NCBI RefSeq assembly: GCF_013315695.1
Contig: NZ_CP054353.1
DNA from: Escherichia coli
GTDB taxonomy: Bacteria; Pseudomonadota; Gammaproteobacteria; Enterobacterales; Enterobacteriaceae
DNA length: 64,000 nucleotides
Reading direction: 5' to 3' (one strand)
Shown: positions 1-1,699 of the stretch, in pieces
Position numbering within the stretch: the first letter of the stretch is position 1
Layout: each line of letters begins with the position of its first letter
The notes under the pieces: model-generated
Told to the model about the DNA's origin: nothing
Database searches by the model: none
Seen by the model: the letters and a program-made list of their open reading frames with translations, nothing else
Program-made: the position numbers and the translations under genes

Positions 1-1699
<1,699 letters not shown>

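Follow-up and report, generated by a model that had tools for sequence, protein, structure and literature searches.

The window analysed here, a stretch of 64,000 nucleotides of Escherichia coli DNA, begins within a 23S rRNA gene and contains, about 100 nt before the 3' end of that gene, a short hairpin that is almost certainly helix 98 (H98, domain VI) of 23S rRNA in one of several discrete natural alleles. Its sequence (GAGACTTAGAGTCTC) is a third allele, absent from K-12, and it is real but ordinary, not rare, in the species. The comparisons presented here support the view that H98 varies naturally and that changes in its stem are compensated, and we infer from them that the window allele is probably a near-neutral, structure-preserving compensatory polymorphism in a peripheral helix that tolerates insertions. 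H98 polymorphism of this kind is already known; a 1999 study by Anton, Martinez-Murcia and Rodriguez-Valera (J Bacteriol 181:2703) deals, to judge from its title, with variation of the E. coli 23S gene and downstream spacer within the species, and it probably covers the H98 region. The case is a textbook one of compensatory change and of concerted evolution acting on a dispensable rRNA helix, and carries little weight as a discovery.

The H98 hairpin and its K-12 counterparts

The hairpin occupies positions 1586-1600 (plus strand), which correspond to nucleotides 2791-2805 of 23S rRNA in the alignment to the K-12 rrl copies. Its stem is formed by GAGAC (1586-1590) and GUCUC (1596-1600), which enclose the loop UUAGA (1591-1595). 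An earlier note on this DNA had placed the feature at 1585-1601, that is, the hairpin plus one flanking base on either side, and the 26-mer quoted in it (CCCTGAGACTTAGAGTCTCCTGAAGG) has a single exact match in the window (1582-1607, plus strand) and none, in the same kind of search, in shuffled sequences. In six of the K-12 rrl copies, each 2904 nt long, the first base of the 15-mer is nt 2791, and in rrlA, with its one additional nucleotide, it is nt 2792; the flanks of the 15-mer in the window (GAGTTCTCCCT and CTGAAGGAACG) are those found in K-12. No extra nucleotides (intervening sequence or expansion insertion) are present relative to the reference helix, since the hairpin has the 15 nt of both K-12 alleles. 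The Rfam LSU model (RF02541) recognizes the segment 1480-1699 alone with 172.7 bits. In this model the helix has only 3 bp, to which the outer 3 bp of the window hairpin align with an additional insertion of 4 nt, suggesting that the length of H98 varies across bacteria.

Alignment of all seven rrl copies of K-12 MG1655 gives GACCCTTTAAGGGTC for H98 in rrlB, rrlD and rrlG, and GACTCCTTGAGAGTC in rrlA, rrlC, rrlE and rrlH. The K-12 sequence that the earlier note had cited (CCCTGACCCTTTAAGGGTCCTGAAGG) is therefore right for the first group but not for the second, which reads CCCTGACTCCTTGAGAGTCCTGAAGG; this second group includes rrlE, the orthologous operon, whose identity with the window had been considered as an alternative and is not observed. 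The unlikeness at H98 between operons A, C, E and H and operons B, D and G has been described (PMC11046459), and that polymorphism affects the same helix, also of 15 nt, with compensated changes in the stem and changes in the loop. It differs, however, between operons of one genome, whereas the window allele is fixed in all operons of its lineage and has the third pair of the stem inverted.

The window differs from either K-12 allele at 6 of the 15 positions, four of them in the stem (two full pairs) and two in the loop. The covarying pairs are the third and the fourth, G1588-C1598 and A1589-U1597, with their 5' sides at 1588-1589 and their 3' sides at 1597-1598 (plus strand). The third pair, G-C in the window, is C-G in K-12, and the fourth, A-U in the window, is C-G in rrlB, rrlD and rrlG and U-A in rrlA, rrlC, rrlE and rrlH. 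Both pairs are altered on both sides and all five pairs of the stem are Watson-Crick, which bears out the original description of paired changes that preserve a hairpin. Standard pairs fill 100% of the cells in the sets of three and of five alleles (25 of 25 cells with five alleles), a value reached in 2 of 500 shuffles, in which about 80% of the pairs are standard. When the partner is shifted to slid registers 16-52% of the positions are paired, and chimeras made of two half-alleles lose the hairpin on folding. A rough estimate of the probability that four stem changes fall by chance in two complementary pairs (10/210) and that both of these are standard ((4/9)^2) gives a product of about 0.01.

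The folding energy of the hairpin is unremarkable when compared with chance (z = -0.6 to -1.2) and was dropped as evidence for it, so that support for the hairpin comes from homology and covariation. The predicted energy is -6.9 kcal/mol for the window hairpin and -6.0 and -9.0 kcal/mol for the two K-12 alleles. Within the loop, U2797 (position 2) and A2800 (position 5) are invariant in the five aligned main alleles; a C replaces U2797 in one rare allele of E. coli.

Through an A-minor interaction, H98 of E. coli contacts the minor groove of helix 1 (H1), and in archaea and eukaryotes it is from H98 that expansion segment ES39 arises (PMC7594248). Tagging with MS2 at H98 is widely used, and these tags leave growth, assembly and function unaffected, although they lower the heat stability of the 50S subunit (PMC9976906). 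Tolerance of the MS2 tag, together with the growth of this helix into ES39, suggests that the sequence of H98 is free to vary. The window hairpin is the same helix as in those two cases but has no insertion and keeps the K-12 length of 15 nt. Its loop adenine (A2800) would probably still reach H1. H98 would accordingly be a short surface hairpin in which the shape and a few loop bases are constrained and the stem sequence is free, and in which stem substitutions would persist solely as compensated pairs, in this case C-G to G-C, and C-G or U-A to A-U, relative to K-12.

Distribution among E. coli genomes and rrn operons

The frequency of the alleles was determined by a census of exact 34-nt matches, which require an identical variable core, in 5426 complete E. 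coli genomes containing a total of 37883 detected rrl copies. The K-12 A/C/E/H allele (GACTCCTTGAGAGTC) accounts for 24376 copies in 4526 genomes and the B/D/G allele (GACCCTTTAAGGGTC) for 8054 copies in 2388 genomes. The window allele was found in 1873 copies, every one of them annotated as 23S rRNA, from 365 genomes (6.7%), with a median of 7 copies per carrier genome (range 1-7). A fourth allele (GAGACTTTAAGTCTC) is present in 524 copies from 91 genomes. The remaining 3056 copies (about 8%) match none of these four main alleles, and sampling among them yielded three minor variants, GACTCCCTGAGAGTC, GAGACTTAAAGTCTC and GACTCTTTAAGGGTC. The last of these, from the 23S rRNA of E. coli CUVET20-416, has a U.G fourth pair, the wobble state through which one K-12 class would be expected to pass into the other. 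Probes, primers and MS2-tag constructs directed to H98 should accommodate no fewer than four common alleles of E. coli. Strain LS45, whose flanking genes are 99.3% identical to those of the window, lacks the window allele in all its copies.

The closest complete genome is that of E. coli isolate AF3, in which all seven rrn operons were located. Their 3' ends show 1-5 differences from the window, except for rrnG, which has a different 23S-5S spacer (ITS2). All seven AF3 operons carry the window H98 allele together with the same variant of the tip of helix 68 (H68), so that this strain has no alternative 23S rRNA, and six of the seven have the window type of ITS2. The exception, rrnG (26502-29614 of the extracted locus), has an ITS2 of K-12 type and, at the position equivalent to window 1000, A where the window has G, a mosaic suggestive of the borders of gene-conversion tracts. 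It had been proposed in the earlier note that the hairpin reflected inter-operon or inter-strain variation; the inter-strain part stands, and the inter-operon part is excluded for this lineage by the presence of the allele in all seven AF3 copies and the median of seven in the carriers.

Mixed genomes also exist. FCI1 has one copy of the window allele and six of GAGACTTTAAGTCTC, and in APEC O18 the window allele is confined to rrnD, where it is combined with yet another ITS2 type. The APEC O18 rrnD operon, which adjoins yhdZ, has in addition a tRNA-Glu spacer where K-12 rrnD has tRNA-Ile and tRNA-Ala. Such a combination of homogeneous and mixed genomes is probably the pattern expected of gene conversion between operons. 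Gene conversion among the seven rrn operons would spread or erase an allele present in one of them, leaving most carriers homogeneous (7/7) and a minority mixed, and we take it as the likely spreading mechanism.

The window ITS2 (1700-1795, plus strand) is of a non-K-12 type, as seen in the alignment to the K-12 copies, with a divergent core at 1725-1750 that is closer to the spacers of Citrobacter youngae and Pseudocitrobacter faecalis than to any K-12 spacer. This type (GAAGAGACATCGATAAGTAAGCTTGATAACAG) is present in 4114 copies from 653 E. coli genomes. It often co-occurs with the window H98 allele, but strict linkage between both is excluded by the number of genomes (653 versus 365) and by AF3 rrnG and APEC O18 rrnD, in which the H98 allele is accompanied by ITS2 of different types.

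Other Enterobacteriaceae and the origin of the allele

A scan of one genome per GTDB species (about 100,000 species) with a 22-mer containing the window allele detected it in two species only, C. youngae and Klebsiella indica. For eight further species, the rrn operon beside yjaB was read on complete chromosomes, located through YjaB homologues; the resulting outgroup sample is small, with ten species and one operon each. The fourth E. coli allele (GAGACTTTAAGTCTC) is found in E. albertii, C. rodentium, C. sedlakii and P. faecalis, the K-12 A/C/E/H allele in C. koseri and K. huaxiensis, and the B/D/G allele in C. amalonaticus. Salmonella bongori has GAGACTTTGAGTCTC, for which an exact search gave no match in E. 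coli. Every common E. coli H98 allele is therefore also found in another genus, and the GAGAC/GTCTC stem is the commonest one in the outgroups (7 of 10 species). This, together with the occurrence of the exact 15-mer in C. youngae and K. indica, indicates that the window allele is no derived oddity. K-12 offers no single H98 reference, as it has two alleles and neither of them has the commonest stem of the related genera.

The allele classes are probably old, although their sharing across genera could instead reflect horizontal transfer or convergence. Old polymorphism ranks ahead of short-tract transfer, and this ahead of convergence, because the combinations of stem and loop are fixed across genera and E. 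albertii has the same stem. When H98 is masked, the window 23S shows 98.8% identity with K-12 and 98.9% with E. albertii, compared with 96.9-97.6% for the remaining species (96.9% for C. youngae). At more than 60 sites it agrees with K-12 against C. youngae, indicating that the allele sits in an E. coli 23S backbone. Wholesale import of a Citrobacter rrl gene is excluded by these values.

A recent horizontal transfer of a short segment of the rRNA operon, comprising the allele and often the non-K-12 ITS2, from a Citrobacter-like donor and followed by gene conversion, is possible but unlikely. Such an event would account for the restriction of the exact 15-mer to C. youngae and K. indica among the GTDB representatives, for the distribution of H98 alleles, which is incongruent with the 23S backbone, and for the agreement of the window with C. 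youngae against all seven K-12 copies at 5 sites in H98 and 7 in the ITS2 core, the latter being also like that of P. faecalis. However, the backbone is E. coli-like on either side of H98, including positions 1635 and 1672 between H98 and ITS2, so that any imported tract would have merely tens of bases. Moreover, the H98 and ITS2 types assort independently, and in the sister species E. albertii the stem is identical and the loop differs at two bases, in keeping with a stem class that has descended vertically.

Convergence, with separate origins of the hairpin in E. coli, Citrobacter and Klebsiella owing to the few combinations of stem and loop that are tolerated, is improbable. The state space is small, variation in the whole set of alleles being confined to two pairs and to about four of the five loop positions, and single-step variants exist in E. 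coli (a UUAAA loop, a CCUGA loop and the U.G pair). Against this, four of the five main alleles recur as identical 15-mers in at least two genera, no recombinant mixtures of stem and loop appear among the ten outgroups, and the change of the third pair from C-G to G-C has no possible wobble intermediate. The likeness of the ITS2 to those of C. youngae and P. faecalis also points to a shared ancestry of the region.

Two functional readings can be considered beside the near-neutral polymorphism preferred here. The H98 classes might constitute a long-lived, cross-genus polymorphism, selected or exchanged as tracts of tens of bases, that tunes the stability of the 50S subunit through the contact between H98 and H1; we regard this as a long shot, and if true, the window allele would contribute to lineage-specific properties of the ribosome. 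Hardly more credible, and if anything slightly less so, is a specialised ribosome (for example, with altered 50S stability via H98-H1) selected in certain pathogenic lineages, for which it can be mentioned that the carriers include the extra-intestinal pathogenic strains S88 and BEN2908. The loss of 50S heat stability caused by the MS2 tag in H98 (PMC9976906) and the fact that H98 touches H1 (PMC7594248) would be in line with an effect of this kind. Nevertheless, the window allele shares its helix length, its five paired positions, U2797 and A2800 with the K-12 alleles, its predicted stability lies between theirs, and the carriers usually have seven identical copies, hence no heterogeneity within the cell to exploit. 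Finally, a sequencing or assembly error as the cause of the difference from K-12 is refuted for practical purposes by the exact copies in the 365 independently assembled complete genomes of the census and by the seven independent copies in AF3, as well as by the paired nature of the changes.

The rrnE locus and neighbouring variants

The window starts within the 23S gene, of which it contains the last 1.7 kb (rrlE, 1-1699, plus strand; Rfam RF02541, 1685 bits, model positions 1248-2925), followed by ITS2 and by the 5S rRNA (1796-1911, plus strand; RF00001, 93 bits). Over the 5 kb after the rRNA, the window has 100% identity with E. coli isolate AF3 and 95-99% with most of the 5426 complete genomes, and the gene order in AF3 is purH-rrnE-yjaB-metA-aceBAK, so that these flanking genes identify the locus as rrnE of E. 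coli.

Other variable sites were observed in the same rRNA operon. The tip of H68 (window 661-670) reads GCGGTAACGC, and the K-12 copies have GCGCAAGC in six cases and GCCGCAAGGC in rrlA. Like rrlA, the window has one base pair more than the other six copies; in this additional pair G-C replaces C-G, and a GUAA tetraloop takes the place of GCAA, which makes it another compensated helix-tip variant. A further helix tip at about 23S nt 2205-2219 (window 1000-1014), probably H79, is unlike every K-12 copy, with a change from G-C to C-G at 1004/1010, another from A-U to G.U at 1000/1014 and a loop substitution (A1006G). This variant, together with G instead of the K-12 A at position 958, is unique relative to both K-12 and C. 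youngae. The 5S rRNA has CU at 1805-1806 (GGCCTTAGC) where the K-12 copies have AG or CG, and its motif CCTTAGC is also present in C. sedlakii and in APEC O18 rrnD. H98, the two helix tips and ITS2 assort separately, as cassettes that could mark gene-conversion tracts between rrn operons. Differences between 23S copies within genomes have been shown to cluster in peripheral helices and to be mostly covariations, G.U/G.C conversions and loop changes (Pei et al. 2009, PMC2672173). The window shows the same pattern at H98 and at both tips, although that study concerns differences within genomes, and here the copies of a genome have become alike and it is the strains that differ.

Downstream of the operon, yjaA, which sits between rrfE and yjaB in K-12, is missing at this place (window 1912-2479), and the reading frame of yjaB has 158 codons instead of the 147 of K-12, with a different C-terminal tail. 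The presence or absence of yjaA serves for phylogroup typing of E. coli. Farther along, Rfam identifies three REP-derived naRNA4 elements on the plus strand (6796-6873, 40135-40205 and 44362-44432) and, on the minus strand, a lysine riboswitch (30363-30559) and the sRNA STnc430 (32454-32602). AF3 carries between pepE and rluF a cluster for a sorbose PTS and sorbose-1-phosphate reductase (AF3 locus 34255-40773, about 16150-22700 in the window), which is probably missing from K-12 and which would then account for the greater distance between lysC and rrnE here. Outside the window, AF3 also contains three tandem IS1-rpn-panC-panB units (14968-29007 of the extracted locus), an arrangement that looks like an IS1-mediated amplification.
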